DNA of 64,000 nucleotides from Escherichia coli (GTDB lineage Bacteria; Pseudomonadota; Gammaproteobacteria; Enterobacterales; Enterobacteriaceae), in the NCBI RefSeq assembly GCF_003334305.1, contig NZ_QOWS01000023.1. One strand, 5' to 3'. Shown piece after piece: positions 11,186 to 17,626 of the stretch. The position numbers and the translations under genes are program-made. The notes beneath the pieces were generated by a model. That model saw nothing but the letters and a program-made list of their open reading frames with translations, did not search any database and was not told the DNA's origin. The first letter of the stretch is position 1. Each line of letters opens with the position of its first letter.

Positions 11186-12055
11186 TCAAAACAAATCGTT
11201 TAGCATAACTCCCACACCGACACGGGTCTGGTTGAAGTTATAGTCGATGAGCGATTCGCCATAGCCGCTGTAAACCTGAGTATAAAGGCGCACATGTTTG
11301 GTGATCGGGTAACTTAAGCCTAACTCCGCGCCGCCGTAGCCGGTGTTCCAGTTGTACTGTCCTTTCGCACTGAGCACCGCATCACCGAGGTGATAGCCGA
11401 TTTTAAGCTGGTAGTAACCCATATATTTGGTGATATCCGGGTTATCGTCAGTATTACCCACCACATACCACGGCTTCACTTCTACCAGCCAGTTACCGTT
11501 TTCTGCCATCAGGCGAGTATAAAGGCGGTTCCAGCTGCGGGAGGTCGGGTCTGAACGCCCGTTAGAGTCGTGGTTATACCCCATCTCCACATCGCGCAGC
11601 GTCCAACCTGCAAAACGGTAATCGGTGGCAAAACCGAGGAACAATTGCGGTTCGTAGTTGGTTTCACGAAACGGTGAAGACTCTTCGCTATTGGACAGTT
11701 GCCACCAGGATTTTTGCGTATAAGATGCACCCAACACCGAGTTCGGGCCTAAAATCCCACGCCACAGTGGAAATGCCAGGCTCAACTGAAACTTTACTTC
11801 ATCCTTACGCGCATTTTCCGCCCAGTCGTAACTGGCAATCGCTTCTTTATTCAGATCGCTGGTTTGTGTGTAGATGAGGTAGTTGGTGTCATAAGGATAG
11901 AGCGTGAACGGATTGTCATGCTCCTGCAGCATATTGGCGATAATACTGCCACGCACCGCTGGCGCGTCATGCACCTCTTTCACCGTTGCCTCTTGTGCAT
12001 ATACTGCCATAGGCAACATAAACACCGGCAACAACCAGCCCTGCAGAGTCCGCAT
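11186..12055 (-). CDS. pldA: outer-membrane phospholipase A (289 aa)
   Basis: ORF MRTLQGWLLPVFMLPMAVYAQEATVKEVHDAPAVRGSIIANMLQEHDNPFTLYPYDTNYLIYT... recognised as OMPLA with signal peptide. Confidence 0.95.
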   Translation of the reverse strand: MRTLQGWLLPVFMLPMAVYAQEATVKEVHDAPAVRGSIIANMLQEHDNPFTLYPYDTNYLIYTQTSDLNKEAIASYDWAENARKDEVKFQLSLAFPLWRGILGPNSVLGASYTQKSWWQLSNSEESSPFRETNYEPQLFLGFATDYRFAGWTLRDVEMGYNHDSNGRSDPTSRSWNRLYTRLMAENGNWLVEVKPWYVVGNTDDNPDITKYMGYYQLKIGYHLGDAVLSAKGQYNWNTGYGGAELGLSYPITKHVRLYTQVYSGYGESLIDYNFNQTRVGVGVMLNDLF

Positions 12056-12219
12056 CGGTCGTGTTCTCCGTAACGAATTATTGATAAGGTGAATGTTTTT
12101 CTGCGGGCTATTTTACATACTTAACTCCATTGCCGTTAGTTATCCCTTCCTAAAGTAGAAACCAACAACAAAGAAGCATAAAATCAACATTTCATTAACC
12201 AATGAAGTGTAAGGATGAT

Positions 12220-12687
12220 ATGTCTGCCGTACTGACTGCTGAACAAGCCCTGAAATTAGTGGGTGAGATGTTTGTTTATCACATGCCATTTAACCGCGCA
12301 TTGGGGATGGAACTGGAGCGTTACGAAAAAGAGTTCGCACAGCTGGCCTTTAAAAATCAGCCAATGATGGTGGGCAACTGGGCGCAAAGCATTTTGCACG
12401 GCGGGGTCATTGCGTCGGCGCTGGATGTCGCCGCCGGTCTGGTGTGCGTGGGAAGTACCTTAACCCGCCACGAAACCATCAGTGAAGATGAACTACGCCA
12501 GCGGCTATCGCGGATGGGGACCATTGATCTTCGCGTTGATTATCTGCGCCCAGGCAGGGGCGAGCGTTTTACTGCTACCAGTAGCCTGTTGCGTGCAGGC
12601 AATAAAGTCGCCGTCGCCCGCGTTGAATTACACAATGAAGAACAGCTTTATATTGCCAGTGCCACCGCCACCTATATGGTAGGTTGA
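12220..12687 (+). CDS. yigI: hotdog-fold thioesterase YigI (155 aa)
   Basis: ORF track 12202-12687; ATG at 12220 ([37 protein letters not shown]...) gives the 155-aa length I recall. Confidence 0.8.
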
Positions 12688-12738
12688 AGACATAAAAGCA
12701 GGTAAACTGCTGTTACCAATTAAAAATGAGTATTCCCG

Positions 12739-13626
12739 ATGGATGCAAAACAAACGCGGCAGGGCGTATTACTCGCTCTTGCCGCTTATTTTATTTGGGG
12801 TATTGCGCCAGCGTACTTCAAGTTGATTTACTACGTGCCCGCCGATGAAATCCTGACGCATCGCGTGATCTGGTCGTTTTTCTTTATGGTGGTGCTGATG
12901 AGTATTTGCCGCCAGTGGTCCTATTTAAAAACGCTGATTCAGACGCCACAGAAAATTTTTATGCTGGCAGTCTCTGCCGTGCTGATTGGTGGCAACTGGC
13001 TACTGTTTATCTGGGCGGTGAACAATCACCATATGCTGGAAGCGAGCCTTGGTTACTTTATTAACCCGCTGGTGAACATTGTGCTGGGGATGATTTTCCT
13101 CGGCGAGCGATTCCGCCGGATGCAATGGCTGGCGGTGATTCTGGCGATATGTGGCGTGTTAGTCCAGCTGTGGACTTTTGGTTCGCTACCTATTATCGCG
13201 CTGGGACTGGCATTTAGTTTTGCCTTCTACGGTCTGGTACGCAAGAAGATTGCCGTTGAAGCGCAAACCGGCATGTTAATCGAAACCATGTGGCTGCTGC
13301 CCGTGGCGGCAATTTACCTGTTTGCTATTGCCGACAGCTCAACCAGCCATATGGGGCAAAACCCGATGTCGCTGAATTTACTGCTGATCGCCGCCGGTAT
13401 TGTCACTACCGTACCGCTGTTGTGTTTTACCGCCGCTGCCACGCGCTTGCGTCTCTCAACGTTAGGCTTTTTCCAGTACATTGGCCCGACGCTGATGTTC
13501 CTGCTGGCTGTGACGTTTTATGGTGAAAAACCGGGTGCCGATAAGATGGTGACTTTCGCCTTTATTTGGGTGGCGCTGGCAATTTTTGTTATGGATGCGA
13601 TTTATACGCAGCGTAGAAAAAGTTAA
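12739..13626 (+). CDS. rarD: EamA/DMT-family transporter RarD (295 aa)
   Basis: ORF MDAKQTRQGVLLALAAYFIWGIAPAYFKLIYYVPADEILTHRVIWSFFFMVV... polytopic membrane protein; synteny. Confidence 0.9.
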   Translation: MDAKQTRQGVLLALAAYFIWGIAPAYFKLIYYVPADEILTHRVIWSFFFMVVLMSICRQWSYLKTLIQTPQKIFMLAVSAVLIGGNWLLFIWAVNNHHMLEASLGYFINPLVNIVLGMIFLGERFRRMQWLAVILAICGVLVQLWTFGSLPIIALGLAFSFAFYGLVRKKIAVEAQTGMLIETMWLLPVAAIYLFAIADSSTSHMGQNPMSLNLLLIAAGIVTTVPLLCFTAAATRLRLSTLGFFQYIGPTLMFLLAVTFYGEKPGADKMVTFAFIWVALAIFVMDAIYTQRRKS

Positions 13627-13636
13627 GAATTAACAT

Positions 13637-13662
13637 GGGTAGGCCGTTTAATGAGCCTACCC
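13637..13662. terminator. stem-loop between convergent rarD and the 114-aa ORF
   Basis: gggtaggc ... gcctaccc inverted repeat followed by a T-run on the + strand. Confidence 0.45.
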
Positions 13663-13672
13663 ACTGACTTAT

Positions 13673-14017
13673 TTATCTTTTTTTGAAAAAAATTAAGATA
13701 AGAAAAAGAACAATATTTGTTACAGGAAGTACCCCCAAAACTCCCCAGTACTTACTCCATCCTAGAGACATCGTATATCTACCAAGGATTTGACAAAACC
13801 CAAAACTTAACCCTATACCTATACTTCTTAAATTTAATGTCGTAGTCAGGCTTAAAATAAATAGAACAAGGATGGTAATAGCCCACCACAATAACCATGC
13901 CTTAACAAAATCAGATTTTTTGCTGTAAGGTTCTTTACCCAAGAACAACTGCCAAAAGTTACCATTCCCCATATAGAATCCATTCCCCAAGATATTGTTT
14001 ATAGAATAAAAATACAT
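13673..14017 (-). CDS. hypothetical small hydrophobic protein (114 aa), AT-rich
   Basis: ORF MYFYSINNILGNGFYMGNGNFWQLFLGKEPYSKK... with two hydrophobic stretches; lies in low-GC DNA; no family recognised. Confidence 0.4.
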   Translation of the reverse strand: MYFYSINNILGNGFYMGNGNFWQLFLGKEPYSKKSDFVKAWLLWWAITILVLFILSLTTTLNLRSIGIGLSFGFCQILGRYTMSLGWSKYWGVLGVLPVTNIVLFLILIFFKKR

Positions 14018-14292
14018 TCCAATTATATAATTAAAATATACCCCATCAATAAAAACTTACACACTCTAAATTACTACTGTATAGTTATCAATGCAAAGAC
14101 TGCTATATTGCATATATATGCAAACCTCATAATTCAGGTAATATATATATTCAAAACAATTATATATAAAAAACAATGTAAAAAATATTCAAATCATCCA
14201 TCAGAAATATATTCTACCCATCCAGGCTTGAGCATTTATCACGCTTTCAGTTCATAATCTATACATTAACATCATGGTCAATATTAATAACT

Positions 14293-14571
14293 TTGAATGA
14301 TATCAACCTGGCTTTGAGTTTTATTCTGGTTATTAATAATACCTATGTAAATATCAATATTGGAGCAAAAAGAATAAGAGATACTGGATGTAAGGCAATC
14401 TACTTTGTATTGATTTCATTGGGTTTGACACTTTTTTCTATTATCTCTGCAGCAATTGAAGGGGTGAGATGTGAGTCATTAAGCGTCCAACTCAACGTGG
14501 CATGGATATTATTCACAACAATTATATTATCTGCGATTCCCTCGGCTAAAATGTCGCTGTCAGCACACTAA
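14293..14571 (+). CDS. hypothetical small hydrophobic protein (92 aa), AT-rich
   Basis: ORF MNDINLALSFILVINNTYVNINIGAKRIRDTGCKAIYFVLISLGLTLFSIISAAIEG...; divergent from the 114-aa ORF across a very AT-rich spacer. Confidence 0.35.
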   Translation: MNDINLALSFILVINNTYVNINIGAKRIRDTGCKAIYFVLISLGLTLFSIISAAIEGVRCESLSVQLNVAWILFTTIILSAIPSAKMSLSAH

Positions 14572-14588
14572 CTTACTCACAGCGACAT
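14551..14588. repeat. perfect 10-bp inverted repeat (atgtcgctgt ... acagcgacat) spanning the 92-aa ORF stop codon
   Basis: Read directly; lies immediately before the corA-like fragment. Confidence 0.5.
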
Positions 14589-14595
14589 CGTATAG

Positions 14596-14738
14596 TTACA
14601 GCCAGTTCTTACGCTTAAAGTACAGATACGGTGTCAGGCCCGCAAGGATCATAAAGATAATCGCGCCAGGGTAGCCAAAGCTCCACTTCAGTTCTGGCAT
14701 AAACTCAAAGTTCATGCCATAGCTGGAGGCAATCCGCG
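14596..14738 (-). pseudogene. diverged duplicate of the corA 3' end (last ~43 codons plus stop)
   Basis: Reverse-strand translation ...[43 protein letters not shown] matches the CorA C-terminus encoded at 16307-16449; ~143 nt alignable with several mismatches; upstream part of the 67-aa ORF is unrelated. Confidence 0.75.
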
Positions 14739-14922
14739 TAGGAAAAAGTTTCCTAATCGGTAAATTCAACATTTTGTTATTAACAATGAGCAAGACCAAT
14801 CATTAACGAGGTTCTCTTCAGAGATGTAATGAAAAAATGTGAAATGTACTTCTTTTTTAAATATTTTTTTACCCTAGCATTTGTTCTCGAATTGACATTG
14901 AGCTTAAATATAACCAAGGCAA

Positions 14923-15777
14923 ATGCAAATGAATAACATATTACTTCCGCCAATTAATATTCCCTGTACACTTTTCGAAACTATTAGTTTATTCGATGAT
15001 TTTTCTGCTGATGATATGCAATATGGTGATATGGTAGAACAAGACTTTCTCTCACTCGGCCTAAGCGATATCTCAGCAAAAGTTGATCCTTACAGACTTA
15101 TTAAATACCATTTCCCTGGCCCAGGTTCTATTAATGTTGCTTTTAGTGCCTCAAGTTCCGGAACAAAAATATCACAACGTGAATGCACTGATATTTTATT
15201 TGCAGAAATGAAAGAACTAGCAAAAATGTTTTCCTTTTTTGGACAAAATAAAACACTTATCGAAGATCTGATTGAACATTTTAGATATAGAAATGGCAGC
15301 AATTTTCATAGCCAACAATTAAATTTATCTTTTCATGAAAAAATAAATAAATATGGTTATAATAGTCCAATACGAATAATCAAAGAATGTATCGAAAATG
15401 GCATTAATTCAACTCCCTCGACAGGATACCAACCTCTTATCCTGCAAAGCATTAAAACCAAATTACTTTCATCAAGACTAAATAAATTTAATGACTTCGA
15501 GGACAGTTTTAATGGCTTAGGAATCAGTGTTCATGATATTTCAGCTCAAAAAATATCTCTTTTAAGTTTTCAAAACTACGCTATAGGATGGAGTGCAACA
15601 ATTCATTTTGTAGCACAGGACCACTTCGGTCTTGATGTAACTGATATCAAAAACAAGACTTACAGCAAATATAGATTTTTTCGCATATGGTTCTTTTTAC
15701 AACGGCATAAAGACTTTGCTTTCAAACCTTTTTTCACCAATTTTAACACTATCGAAAGAATCGAAAATTATCTATGA
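14923..15777 (+). CDS. hypothetical protein (284 aa; 282 aa if the second ATG at 14929 is used), no signal peptide
   Basis: Uninterrupted ORF in very AT-rich DNA; aagg Shine-Dalgarno-like motif ~10 nt before the ATG at 14929; stop overlaps the start of the next ORF (ATGA). Confidence 0.65.
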   Translation: MQMNNILLPPINIPCTLFETISLFDDFSADDMQYGDMVEQDFLSLGLSDISAKVDPYRLIKYHFPGPGSINVAFSASSSGTKISQRECTDILFAEMKELAKMFSFFGQNKTLIEDLIEHFRYRNGSNFHSQQLNLSFHEKINKYGYNSPIRIIKECIENGINSTPSTGYQPLILQSIKTKLLSSRLNKFNDFEDSFNGLGISVHDISAQKISLLSFQNYAIGWSATIHFVAQDHFGLDVTDIKNKTYSKYRFFRIWFFLQRHKDFAFKPFFTNFNTIERIENYL

Positions 15778-16253
15778 AAAGCAAACTCCAGAAAATTATA
15801 TTATGTTTATTTCTTCTATGCTGCATCTATAATTTATGGACATTGCGTCCTGTACAGATTTTGTATACATACTCTGATGCTGGCAATTCAGTCTTTCTGG
15901 TCGTTGATCATCTGCCATGGACTGACAGCGATAAAATAAATTGGTATCTGAAGCATCAGAATGAAATTAAAAATCAACATCCCCTACCAGAAGGTAGTTG
16001 GCATACCTGGTATGTCATTGATATCGGTAATGGCTTCACTGACTATAAAAAATATATCGAAGGGCCGTATGAAGATCTCTACTGTTTCCCGACAATTAAG
16101 AGCAATGATAATTGCATCGTGAAAAATTACTTAATGGTTATTAATGAATACCCTTATCGTAACACTCATATTGGTATTAACGATTTTACTGAGTATCAAT
16201 TAACACAAGAAAATAAAATAGAGCGAGTTTTCAATCCGCATGACTTTAAATAA
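15774..16253 (+). CDS. hypothetical protein (159 aa) with N-terminal hydrophobic anchor or signal segment
   Basis: ORF MKSKLQKIILCLFLLCCIYNLWTLRPVQ...; 4-bp ATGA overlap with the upstream ORF suggests translational coupling. Confidence 0.65.
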   Translation: MKSKLQKIILCLFLLCCIYNLWTLRPVQILYTYSDAGNSVFLVVDHLPWTDSDKINWYLKHQNEIKNQHPLPEGSWHTWYVIDIGNGFTDYKKYIEGPYEDLYCFPTIKSNDNCIVKNYLMVINEYPYRNTHIGINDFTEYQLTQENKIERVFNPHDFK

Positions 16254-16271
16254 GACAATTTTTAGAAATAA

Positions 16272-16300
16272 GCCGGATAAAAAAATAGCTTTATCCGGCA
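16272..16300. terminator. bidirectional stem-loop between the 159-aa ORF and corA
   Basis: gccggataaa ... tttatccggc inverted repeat with A/T runs. Confidence 0.5.
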
Positions 16301-16306
16301 CTCATA

Positions 16307-17257
16307 TTACAGCCAGTTCTTGCGCTTAAAGTACAGATACGGTGCCAGGCCCGCGAGGATCATAAAGATAATCGCGCCTGGGTAGCCGAAACTCCACTTC
16401 AGTTCTGGCATAAACTCAAAGTTCATCCCATAGCTGGAAGCAACGAGCGTCGGCGGCAGGAATACCACGGATACCACCGAGAAGATTTTGATGATGCGGT
16501 TCTGCTCGATGTTGATAAAGCCCATCGCCGCCTGCATCAGGAAGTTCACCTTCTGGAACAGGGATTCGTTATGCGGCAGCAGGGATTCGATATCTCGCAG
16601 GATTTCACGCGCCTGCTCCAGTTGCCCACCCGGTAAACGCGCCTTGCGTACCAGGAAGTTGAGCGCACGCTGGGTATCCATCAGACACAGGCGAACTTTC
16701 CAGCCGATATCTTCCAGTTCCGCCAGCGTGGAGAGCGCCTCATCGTACTCATCGCCCTGATGCCCTTCCATAATTACCCGGCTCAACTGCTCCAGATCGC
16801 TGTAGATATTTTCAATTTCATCTGCCAGCTGTTCGATTTTGGTTTCGAACAGATCCAACAGCAGCTCGTAGGCGTTACCGTCCACCATTGACTGGCTACG
16901 GGCGCGCATACGATACAGACGGAATGCAGGCAGTTCACGCTCACGCAGAGTAAACAGACGACCATCACGGATGGTAAATGCCACAGTGGAGTTACCGGCG
17001 TGATCTTCCGCATCTTCAAAGAAGAAGAAGGAGTGAATATGCAGGCCGTCGTCGTCTTCAAAGAAACGTGCCGATGCTTCGATGTCTTCCAGTTCCGGGC
17101 GGGTTGCCAGGCTCTGGCCAAGTTCAGATTGTACGCGCAGTCGCTCGTCGTCGTCCGGTTCGACAAGATCAATCCATACTGCATTTACAAGGGGTTGTGA
17201 CTCTTCGACTTCCAGCCGGGTCAGTCGGTTATTTTCCAGTTGAAATGCGCTCAGCAT
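16307..17257 (-). CDS. corA: Mg2+/Co2+ transport protein CorA (316 aa)
   Basis: ORF track 16307-17272; ATG at 17257 gives [31 protein letters not shown]... and the GMNFE signature near the C-terminus. Confidence 0.95.
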
Positions 17258-17626
17258 GACCGGGACTCCCAATGCTTAAAATATCGGACAGTTCGGTGGG
17301 CACACAGAAACAAATTGGGTTTCAGACCATTAAACAGCCTGACTCAGCGCGACGGGAAAAATTGAGGTCGCTGACAACCGCTAAGGCTATCAGCAAAAAG
17401 GGATAGCCTTAGGAGTTGATCCTGGATGACAGGATAGTGAGCCAGTATCTACTGGGTGTGTCCAAGGCGAATGTCCTCTTAGAGTGATCGTGCGCGCATG
17501 TTACGCCAGCAAAATTTTGCCGTCAACACGCAACAGAACACCACAGAACAATAGTTGAACTTCGCGCTTTTTGGTACTCGTCAAGGTCGCTAACAGGATA
17601 AAAAAATCCAACATCCAGGACCTATA

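Follow-up and report, generated by a model that had tools for sequence, protein, structure and literature searches.

The window analysed here, a stretch of 64,000 nucleotides from an Escherichia coli contig (NZ_QOWS01000023.1), harbours between rarD and corA a variable segment of 977 bp (13619–14595, 32% GC) that is the allelic counterpart of the 922-bp yigG-yigF stretch in strain K-12. Two divergent genes are accommodated within it: a minus-strand gene for a 99-amino-acid protein (13673–13972), located beside rarD, and a plus-strand yigG-like gene of 128 codons (14185–14571). A divergent intergenic spacer of 212 bp (13973–14184) lies between the two and its GC content is as low as 22.6%. A preliminary description of this DNA had listed a minus-strand open reading frame of 114 codons (13673–14017) and a plus-strand frame of 92 codons (14293–14571), kept apart by a very AT-rich spacer with 14 G/C in the 60 nucleotides at 14101–14160. 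Both frames are found exactly so in the list of open reading frames, the first with an ATG and the second with a TTG start, a recount at 14101–14160 yields the same figure and the spacer is as AT-rich as described; the frames hold as genes, but their boundaries had to be redrawn to the 99-residue and 128-codon extents given above.

The boundaries of the segment were established by pairwise BLASTN comparison with the K-12, TUM13936, Nord1 and D1 loci and by alignment of the junctions. On the left, nucleotide homology to K-12 ends at 13618, 8 nucleotides before the rarD stop codon; on the right, it resumes at 14596, at the stop codon of a duplicated corA 3′ end. The segment takes the exact place of yigG-yigF of K-12, extending from the final codons of rarD as far as the stop of corA, and a BLASTN search at word size 11 detected nothing alignable between 13619–14595 and the 922-bp K-12 counterpart. 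The base composition of the region is distinctive: 32.2% GC for 13627–14595 and 32.0% for the variable segment, against 51.5% for the whole window. The right boundary in this haplotype is formed by a 147-nucleotide remnant of the corA 3′ end on the minus strand (14596–14742), which is a direct repeat of 16307–16453 with 92% identity and is labelled in RefSeq as a partial CorA pseudogene. The duplication arose with the arrival of a DUF3289-DUF943 module, a toxin-immunity unit encoding a colicin-M-like effector-immunity pair, which neighbours the segment. The module and the variable segment can occur apart, as in MSB1_4I, which has the segment without the toxin module. Both genes flanking the segment are protein-coding. 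A search of 12500–17500 against Rfam at E ≤ 1 returned two chance-level matches, both outside the segment, and no known RNA element.

The gene beside rarD is intact and corresponds to the RefSeq coding sequence WP_000526434.1, annotated as ‘hypothetical protein’ in identical loci. The longer 114-codon model was discarded: its 15 N-terminal codons are unconserved and, owing to an indel of one nucleotide, out of frame in strains EDL933 and W, and the extension would start at about the predicted transcription start. Orthologues of the 99-residue protein are encoded at this very locus by Escherichia clades (79% amino acid identity), Salmonella (59%) and Pseudocitrobacter (61%), and the gene displays a dN/dS of 0.19–0.26. 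An AlphaFold (AF2) model with a pLDDT of 82 contains three predicted transmembrane helices, consistent with an inner-membrane protein of an as yet unnamed family. A scan of species-representative genomes with the profile of this family was performed with a single degenerate pattern that is too narrow for the Salmonella and Pseudocitrobacter members, and genomic context was instead drawn from look-ups of exact proteins. The scan recovered three contigs with 99–100% identity, filed under metagenome-assembled genomes of Clostridium, Alistipes and Collinsella, which are evidently E. coli contamination.

The plus-strand frame of 92 codons represents the 3′ three quarters of the 128-codon frame, which is open from 14182. 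At the conserved start position (14185–14187) an ATA codon is present in this strain, whereas ATG is found in EDL933, W, MSB1_4I, genomes of the Escherichia clades, Salmonella and Pseudocitrobacter; the next in-frame ATG, GTG or TTG is codon 37. An exact 32-mer search located the ATG form in 966 genomes and the ATA form in 356, approximately a quarter of the carriers. The start aside, the gene shows neither frameshift nor stop, and it differs from close ATG alleles by 3–4 non-synonymous and 0–1 synonymous substitutions, numbers that are small. Judging from these sequence features, the yigG-like gene is probably a start-codon pseudogene in this strain or else very poorly translated. Weak translation can be initiated at ATA codons, and the gene may therefore retain some activity; the change from ATG to ATA nevertheless makes it likely that the 99-residue protein alone is made at normal efficiency in this strain. 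An ATG-TAA pair at 14176–14181, considered as a regulatory start-stop element, is unconserved in W and MSB1_4I and was set aside. RefSeq leaves the yigG-like frame unannotated in every carrier genome examined, including those of O157:H7 EDL933 and E. coli W, and in GenBank the gene is sometimes called as the truncated form of 92 residues. Same-locus proteins of some Salmonella and Pseudocitrobacter share 47–49% identity with its product (49% in Salmonella), and the dN/dS of the gene is 0.15–0.24. The corresponding AF2 model (pLDDT 71) comprises four transmembrane helices. Kyte-Doolittle segments and the two AlphaFold models thus agree with the earlier prediction that both products are small membrane proteins.

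It might be argued that the two frames are chance openings in AT-rich, horizontally acquired junk that encodes nothing. A GC content of 32%, the lack of strong Shine-Dalgarno sequences, the absence of the plus-strand frame from the RefSeq annotation and the fact that neither protein has a significant Pfam match could all be accommodated by such a reading. The length and persistence of the frames tell a different story. The two longest stop-free runs in 13619–14595 measure 129 and 127 codons; in dinucleotide-preserving shuffles of the segment, a longest run of at least 129 codons was obtained in just 7 of 2000 cases and a second-longest run of at least 113 codons in 1 of 2000, a rarity which indicates that both frames are more than chance. 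Moreover, both are open across lineages at dS values of 0.3–0.6, and in Salmonella even past the point of saturation; the dN/dS of the two genes is about 0.15–0.26, a signature of purifying selection. The structural models are also confident enough, and match one specific family. The chance-frame reading has already been largely refuted and is extremely improbable.

The specific family is DUF805 (PF05656), the group that includes YhaH and YhaI. In Foldseek searches against afdb50, most of the top 50 matches of either model were DUF805/YhaH/YhaI proteins. For the 99-residue protein, the query-normalised TM-scores were 0.53–0.76 and the E-values weak (0.03–0.3), and these are to be read with the proviso that small helical bundles match easily. 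The best DUF805 match of the yigG-like model had an E-value of 4.3e-4, and matches to models labelled as YigG had E-values of 0.007–0.009. Both window proteins are therefore predicted, on the basis of these models, to fold as small helical membrane proteins of the DUF805 type. At the sequence level membership is sub-threshold, as neither reaches significance in Pfam: the yigG-like protein matches PF05656 at E 0.024 in its 92-residue form and at 0.32 in its 128-residue form, and for the 99-residue protein no DUF805 match was retrieved from Pfam at E ≤ 10. A distant relative of the latter family (30% identical) does match PF05656, at 1.8e-4. A central K-R-I-R-D-T-G in the yigG-like protein resembles the R-R-L-H-D motif of DUF805, whereas the 99-residue protein is devoid of an R-x-H/R-D motif. 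The literature on DUF805 reports no function. The proteins of the segment had no match in a PHROG search; PADLOC at E ≤ 0.1 assigned no family to either of them, to two distant relatives, or to YigG or YigF; and the 99-residue protein retrieved nothing from NCBIfam. A search of the literature on the presumed EDL933 locus tags Z5335–Z5340 returned nothing relevant.

How do these genes relate to the K-12 pair? The preliminary description had placed yigG and yigF between rarD and corA in K-12, and this is confirmed; it had also doubted that the two frames are their orthologues. In K-12 the order is yigG followed by yigF, both on the plus strand, whereas here the minus-strand gene adjoins rarD and is followed by the yigG-like gene on the plus strand. 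The yigG-like gene is similar in length to yigG of K-12 (NCBIfam NF008474/PRK11371) and shares with it both the position between rarD and corA and the strand, which is that of rarD. Its product has four hydrophobic helices, and the R-x-R-D-x-G, Y-x-x-I-N and Cys motifs are conserved and colinear over the full length. The match to NF008474 (24.3 bits, E 2.6e-5) extends over profile positions 15–131 of 138. Global MAFFT alignments give 26–30% identity with 16–32 invariant columns, among which are P12, R20, Y54, I57-N58, R63-x-R65-D66-x-G68 and C96. Sequence comparison thus identifies the plus-strand protein as a distant YigG homologue rather than the product of an unrelated gene. It differs in that K-12 yigG adjoins rarD, while the gene for the 99-residue protein stands between rarD and the yigG-like gene, whose partner is a different one and whose start codon is ATA in this strain. 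YigF of K-12 (DUF2628) is likewise a small membrane protein encoded between rarD and corA, but it has two transmembrane segments after a soluble N-terminal part, where the 99-residue protein has three helices, it is encoded on the opposite strand to that protein, and its sequence resembles neither window protein to any detectable extent. Direct comparison of YigF/DUF2628 with the 99-residue protein disclosed no similarity (BLASTP E 5.3; hhalign E 0.087, probability 0.7%). Profile comparisons of the 99-residue protein family with YigG (hhalign E 0.12 and 0.0076, probability 0.5–5%) aligned the N-terminal motif alone; the match is suggestive but falls short of evidence, and paralogy of the two genes of the segment is not claimed.

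The locus could accordingly be viewed as an ordinary yigG-yigF pair, diverged or inverted, in which both frames are true K-12 orthologues. Such a view can draw on the position between rarD and corA and on the full-length, colinear, albeit distant, homology of the plus-strand protein to YigG. It does not sit well with the absence of nucleotide similarity at word size 11, with a YigG score that falls far below the 217-bit equivalog cut-off of NF008474 (K-12 YigG itself scores 255.6), with a 99-residue protein that is unlike YigF, with the altered gene order and orientation, or with the coexistence of the two classes as discrete alleles in E. coli and Salmonella, and it appears highly improbable. 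Comparison with K-12 YigF and YigG yielded no high-identity, full-length match and an arrangement unlike that of K-12. The doubt on orthology was hence justified, with the caveat that the frame on the plus strand does share distant homology with YigG.

The segment is widespread. Of 5426 complete E. coli genomes, 1431 contain it at a coverage of at least 80%, in one copy each, and all 1468 matching places in this collection are chromosomal. The rarD-corA interval exists in at least four allele classes among these genomes: besides the allele described here, about 2475 genomes carry the K-12 class, about 490 a yigGF class at 79% nucleotide identity and about 1000 neither small gene. Beyond E. coli, intact copies of both genes, with locus and orientation conserved, are found in Escherichia clades (79–82% amino acid identity) and in Salmonella and Pseudocitrobacter (47–61%). 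Salmonella enterica carries this gene pair at the same locus and Salmonella LT2 has the K-12 class, so that either class is represented in E. coli as well as in Salmonella.

Recent acquisition beside rarD, whether as a genomic islet or as a load carried by a phage, a plasmid or an integrative element, is an alternative that the composition of the segment readily brings to mind. The segment is much poorer in G/C than the genome on average, the neighbouring toxin-immunity module duplicated the corA 3′ end on its arrival and IS1 copies are present in the rarD-corA interval of some strains. Nevertheless, no integrase or transposase frames and no flanking repeats were found around 13619–14595, the allele occurs in one copy per genome on chromosomes only, PHROGs are silent and the segment is also encountered in MSB1_4I, where the toxin module is missing. 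The sole ‘plasmid’ matches of the segment are two records of 1.0 Mb and 4.8 Mb, sizes too large for ordinary plasmids, and these records are probably mislabelled. Furthermore, the copies of the pair that Salmonella and Pseudocitrobacter carry at this locus have diverged at synonymous sites at least as far as rarD and corA have. With synonymous sites saturated in a pair that has kept its locus, the allele is old and not a recent replacement, and a recent arrival is very unlikely. The preliminary description had suggested a replaced or rearranged variable region: homology to K-12 is indeed absent from 13619–14595, but the event was not a recent one.

Taken together, these observations identify the locus as a common, old, strain-variable alternative allele of yigG-yigF and not as a new kind of element. 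In its fuller form, the interpretation favoured here, to which a probability of about 0.8 is assigned, is that 13619–14595 is one of several alternative alleles of a short accessory rarD-corA interval, that it consists of two divergent genes for small polytopic inner-membrane proteins with a DUF805 fold, that it is old and that the start codon of the yigG-like gene is lost in this strain. Homologous recombination in the core genes on either side presumably lets the allele move within species, without mobility machinery of its own.

How the allele might operate is a more tentative matter. Two promoter-like sites are arranged back to back in the spacer, one on the minus strand (14049→14022, TTGATG-16-TATAAT) and one on the plus strand (14056→14085). 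Such sites total 7 against 7.1 expected in shuffles, with no excess, and the promoters are accordingly putative. A hairpin with an 11-bp stem on the minus strand (13635–13664), between the convergent rarD and 99-residue protein genes, is a likely terminator: the terminator scan returned 4 sites against 0.6 expected in shuffles, and alignment by eye places a hairpin of a different sequence at the same position in the Salmonella allele.

Precedents are offered by the K-12 allele. Its yigF-yigG region has been flagged as alien DNA in the form of a ‘promoter island’ (PMC3661553), contains intragenic promoters repressed by H-NS (PMC7229825) and lies within an extended protein occupancy domain (bioRxiv 10.1101/2020.01.29.924811). 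The two alleles share the locus, a similar GC content (34.7% in K-12 and 32.0% here) and small genes of no known function, although their sequences are unrelated; silencing was measured at the K-12 allele, and for the allele described here we infer it from composition; promoters, membrane insertion and a physiological role are inferred as well. According to the scheme proposed, H-NS and other nucleoid proteins would largely silence the back-to-back promoters of the AT-rich 212-bp spacer, and the proteins, once expressed, would serve at the cytoplasmic membrane as accessory factors of the envelope with effects on surface and stress properties; of the two, the 99-residue protein alone would be made in this strain. 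This mode of action is possible, with odds somewhat below even. Since DUF805 has no known biochemical function, the term ‘envelope factor’ is a weak commitment. Attachment and chlorine phenotypes have been described in one study for Salmonella yigG (PMC3579871), but they concern yigG of the K-12 class, to which the yigG-like protein is just 26–30% identical.

A different role has been contemplated for the cassettes, namely that they confer immunity or resistance to membrane-acting bacteriocins, type VI secretion effectors or phages and are maintained as a balanced polymorphism. Immunity proteins against pore-formers are small and polytopic, and the proteins encoded here share these traits. The discrete and deeply diverged allele classes common to E. 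coli and S. enterica would fit this picture, as would the colicin-M-like effector-immunity pair hosted at the locus and the Foldseek lists, in which DUF805 modules appear fused to TIR, J and zinc-ribbon domains. Set against this are the lack of a PADLOC match and of an adjacent toxin gene specific to the cassette, and the separability of the cassette from the DUF3289-DUF943 module. In addition, the start codon of one gene is lost in about a quarter of carriers and about 1000 genomes have neither small gene, both of which argue against strong selection; an immunity function is unlikely. A broader evolutionary scenario envisages at least two outwardly unrelated cassettes of small DUF805-type membrane proteins, yigG-yigF on the one hand and the 99-residue protein gene with the yigG-like gene on the other, as an old cross-species polymorphism that has been present in E. 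coli and Salmonella enterica since before their split, held by frequency-dependent selection, for example through resistance or immunity at the membrane against phages, bacteriocins or contact-dependent toxins. This too is rather unlikely, if slightly less so.

The favoured interpretation has several consequences, modest in practical terms. A conserved yigG-like gene of 128 codons is absent from RefSeq in the carriers examined, out of roughly 1400 complete genomes with the allele, and the ‘hypothetical protein’ of 99 residues encoded beside rarD is now assignable to a small family whose predicted fold is DUF805-like. K-12 is unrepresentative at this locus, as about half of E. coli genomes are without a yigG-yigF of the K-12 type; functional work on yigG, such as the Salmonella attachment study, is therefore not automatically transferable between strains. 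The one mildly notable point is the old polymorphism itself: the occurrence of both classes in both species provides a tidy example of ancient variation at a core-genome junction and could be exploited to look for selection on DUF805-type proteins. Should a cross-species polymorphism under frequency-dependent selection prove true, it would offer the first functional handle on the large DUF805 family.

The segment at 13619-14595 of the window represents an alternative allele of the rarD–corA interval that is ordinary and widespread but under-annotated, containing a divergent yigG homologue whose start codon has been lost in the window and a second DUF805-like membrane protein. The flanking genes are pldA (11186-12055, minus strand), yigI (12202-12687, plus) and rarD (12739-13626, plus) on the left and corA (16307-17257, minus) on the right. 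In K-12, yigG and yigF do lie between rarD and corA, as the preliminary description had it: they follow rarD on the same strand, and the convergent corA comes next. Homology with K-12 ends at 13618, eight bases ahead of the rarD stop codon, so that the RarD C-terminus reads ...QRRKS in the window and ...QRRTSK in K-12; it restarts with the stop codon (14596) that closes a duplicate corA 3' end. Pairwise nucleotide comparison of the 977 bp of the segment with the 922 bp of K-12 yigG-yigF revealed nothing alignable, bearing out the earlier suspicion of a replaced variable region and showing an allelic replacement with exact boundaries. The segment forms the first portion of a low-GC trough (13600-16300) of 22–36% GC, compared with ~50% in pldA, yigI, rarD and corA. 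GC content is 51.5% for the whole window, 32% for the interval and 22.6% for the spacer between the two genes, in which 14101-14160 holds exactly the 14 G+C first reported.

Allele classes were counted over the rarD-proximal interval in 5426 complete E. coli genomes, the figures being approximate. The segment is present at a coverage of at least 80% in ~1431 genomes, including O157:H7, O121, O111, O145 and W, as a single chromosomal copy. K-12-type yigG-yigF (nucleotide identity at least 80%) is found in ~2475, with identity of at least 95% in all except 15. A variant of yigG-yigF with 79% nucleotide identity characterizes ~490 genomes, for example ST131, and in ~1000 a short remnant adjoining rarD is all that is left. 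IS1 has inserted within the rarD–corA interval in several strains of both allele classes.

The two ORFs initially described, of 114 aa (13673-14017, minus) and 92 aa (14293-14571, plus), are present and open, but the conserved genes span 99 aa and 128 codons, respectively. In a six-allele alignment, strains EDL933 and W show a 1-nt indel 5' of Met16 in the 114-aa ORF, which throws the N-terminal extension out of frame; the extension is therefore not conserved, and the 114-aa gene model was rejected. The conserved 99-aa frame (13673-13972, minus) corresponds to the RefSeq hypothetical protein WP_000526434.1. A terminator scan located a hairpin with an 11-bp stem between rarD and this gene, and a different hairpin lies at the matching position in the Salmonella allele, the alignment being judged by eye. 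The 99-aa protein has no match in Pfam, NCBIfam, PHROG or PADLOC, and similarity to YigF is absent by BLASTP and hhalign. An exhaustive HMMER search gathered a small family of relatives (100–112 aa, 30–45% identity), one of which matches Pfam DUF805 at E 1.8e-4. On two unrelated metagenomic contigs, distant members (30–40% identity) lie directly upstream of an alanine dehydrogenase gene, preceded on one contig by a second small membrane ORF of 97 aa.

The frame on the plus strand opens at 14182, and its conserved 128 codons occupy 14185-14571. The equivalent of 14185-14187 is ATG in EDL933, W, MSB1_4I, Escherichia clade genomes, Salmonella and Pseudocitrobacter, where the frame encodes 126–128 aa; the window has ATA instead. 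The next in-frame ATG, GTG or TTG in the window is a TTG at codon 37, within the first transmembrane helix, which is the start of the 92-aa ORF. By exact 32-mer the ATG form occurs in 966 genomes and the ATA form in 356; the loss of the start codon is therefore real and tags a sub-lineage of the allele. No RefSeq/PGAP CDS covers the 128-codon frame in any genome examined, including the ATG-intact EDL933 and W. Some GenBank records annotate it solely as the 92-aa TTG-start version. One codon upstream and in frame, an ATG-TAA pair (14176-14181) is shared by the window and the alleles D1, A7 and EDL933; it is probably incidental, since W and MSB1_4I lack it.

The BLASTP comparison with K-12 YigF and YigG returned no high-identity full-length match. 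The 128-aa protein is colinear with YigG at 26–30% identity, sharing the motifs R-x-R-D-x-G and Y-x-x-I-N and a Cys, and matches the NCBIfam YigG model (NF008474) over nearly the whole profile at E 2.6e-5. Its score of 24 bits against a cut-off of 217, together with the dissimilarity of the 99-aa protein to YigF, contradicts the view that the pair are true orthologues of yigG and yigF. The original doubt about orthology thus holds for both ORFs, the plus-strand product being a distant YigG homologue, not an equivalog.

That the ORFs are chance open frames is likewise contradicted. Stop codons are frequent in AT-rich DNA, and the longest stop-free runs in the segment extend over 129 and 127 codons; among 2000 dinucleotide-preserving shuffles, the longest run reached at least 129 codons in seven and the second-longest at least 113 in one. 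Locus, order and orientation of the pair are also conserved in Escherichia clades (79–82% amino acid identity in Escherichia sp. E4742, E. whittamii and genomes named as divergent E. coli), in Salmonella enterica (59% and 48–49%; a cluster of 807 sequences including serovar Infantis) and in Pseudocitrobacter corydidari (61% and 47%). Across Escherichia comparisons dN/dS is 0.19–0.26 for the 99-aa gene and 0.14–0.24 for the yigG-like gene, against 0.00–0.04 for rarD and corA, which points to purifying selection on both small genes, weaker than on their neighbours. Both products are hydrophobic, and their AlphaFold models contain three (99 aa, pLDDT 82) and four (128 aa, pLDDT 71) transmembrane helices, in keeping with the small membrane proteins predicted at the outset. 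In Foldseek searches of AFDB50, DUF805 proteins make up most of the top 50 for both models, with weak E-values for the 99-aa protein and YigG-labelled models also among the matches of the 128-aa one. Both proteins are thus placed, on predicted structure, in the DUF805 fold class; Pfam membership is not claimed.

Between E. coli and Salmonella, synonymous sites of the window class are saturated (pS 0.75–0.84), compared with 0.63 for rarD and 0.44 for corA. Synonymous divergence between the genera is thus at least as great as that of the flanking genes, with no sign of recent transfer. This divergence at the same locus, and the single chromosomal copy in E. coli, contradict an interpretation of the segment as mobile-element cargo. 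For Salmonella Typhimurium LT2, one flank of the yigG knock-out primers contains the 3' end of rarD and the opposite flank a YigF-like start (MDKDYINDGSLSEKW), and Figure S1C of the same study presents a DNA alignment of the LT2 and K-12 yigG genes (PMC3579871); LT2 accordingly belongs to the K-12 class. That class is also found in Saintpaul and Typhi, and the window class in other isolates, such as serovar Infantis. Both classes therefore segregate in E. coli and S. enterica, as judged for Salmonella from these example strains.

The corA 3' end copy (147 nt, 14596-14742) is 92% identical to 16307-16453. Between the two copies lie a DUF3289/YPO3983 gene (14929-15777, plus) and a DUF943 gene (15774-16253, plus); according to a 2024 paper, the first encodes a colicin-M-like T6SS effector and the second the protein conferring immunity to it. 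The arrangement suggests that the module inserted into the corA 3' end and carried a substitute end with it. The module is present in 2633 of the 5426 genomes. It accompanies the segment in 1407 and is missing beside it in MSB1_4I; yigG-yigF likewise occurs with and without it, and strain Nord1 has the module with neither corA remnant nor small membrane genes. It is improbable that the small genes are immunity or defence determinants, given the lack of a PADLOC match and of a cassette-specific toxin and the frequent gene loss in the population.

For both proteins, many of the entries from draft genomes in GenBank are marked 'partial', with the contigs carrying them recurring at ~32–36 kb and 58–60 kb, suggesting that short-read assembly of E. 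coli and Salmonella genomes often breaks at the low-GC interval. Contigs with the segment at 99–100% identity are filed as Clostridium, Alistipes and Collinsella metagenome-assembled genomes in a species-representative collection, most likely through binning contamination.

The two genes are transcribed divergently from a 212-bp spacer, which may harbour back-to-back promoters; the best consensus matches run from 14049 to 14022 and from 14056 to 14085, promoter-like matches being no commoner than in shuffles. K-12 yigF-yigG has been classed as alien DNA forming a 'promoter island' (PMC3661553), contains H-NS-repressed intragenic promoters (PMC7229825) and lies within a protein occupancy domain (bioRxiv 10.1101/2020.01.29.924811); similar H-NS silencing might apply to the segment. 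Among the genes at the locus, phenotypes are known only for K-12-class yigG, whose mutants in Salmonella show reduced surface attachment and chlorine tolerance (PMC3579871). There is roughly a one-in-three chance that the products are accessory envelope proteins expressed under particular conditions only, and that in the strain of the window the 99-aa protein alone is made efficiently. The sole mildly notable aspect of the segment is that two species share this old polymorphism. As regards the family, AFDB entries in the Foldseek lists show DUF805-like membrane modules fused to zinc-ribbon, J-domain, FtsK-like and TIR domains, and these fusions could hint at its function.
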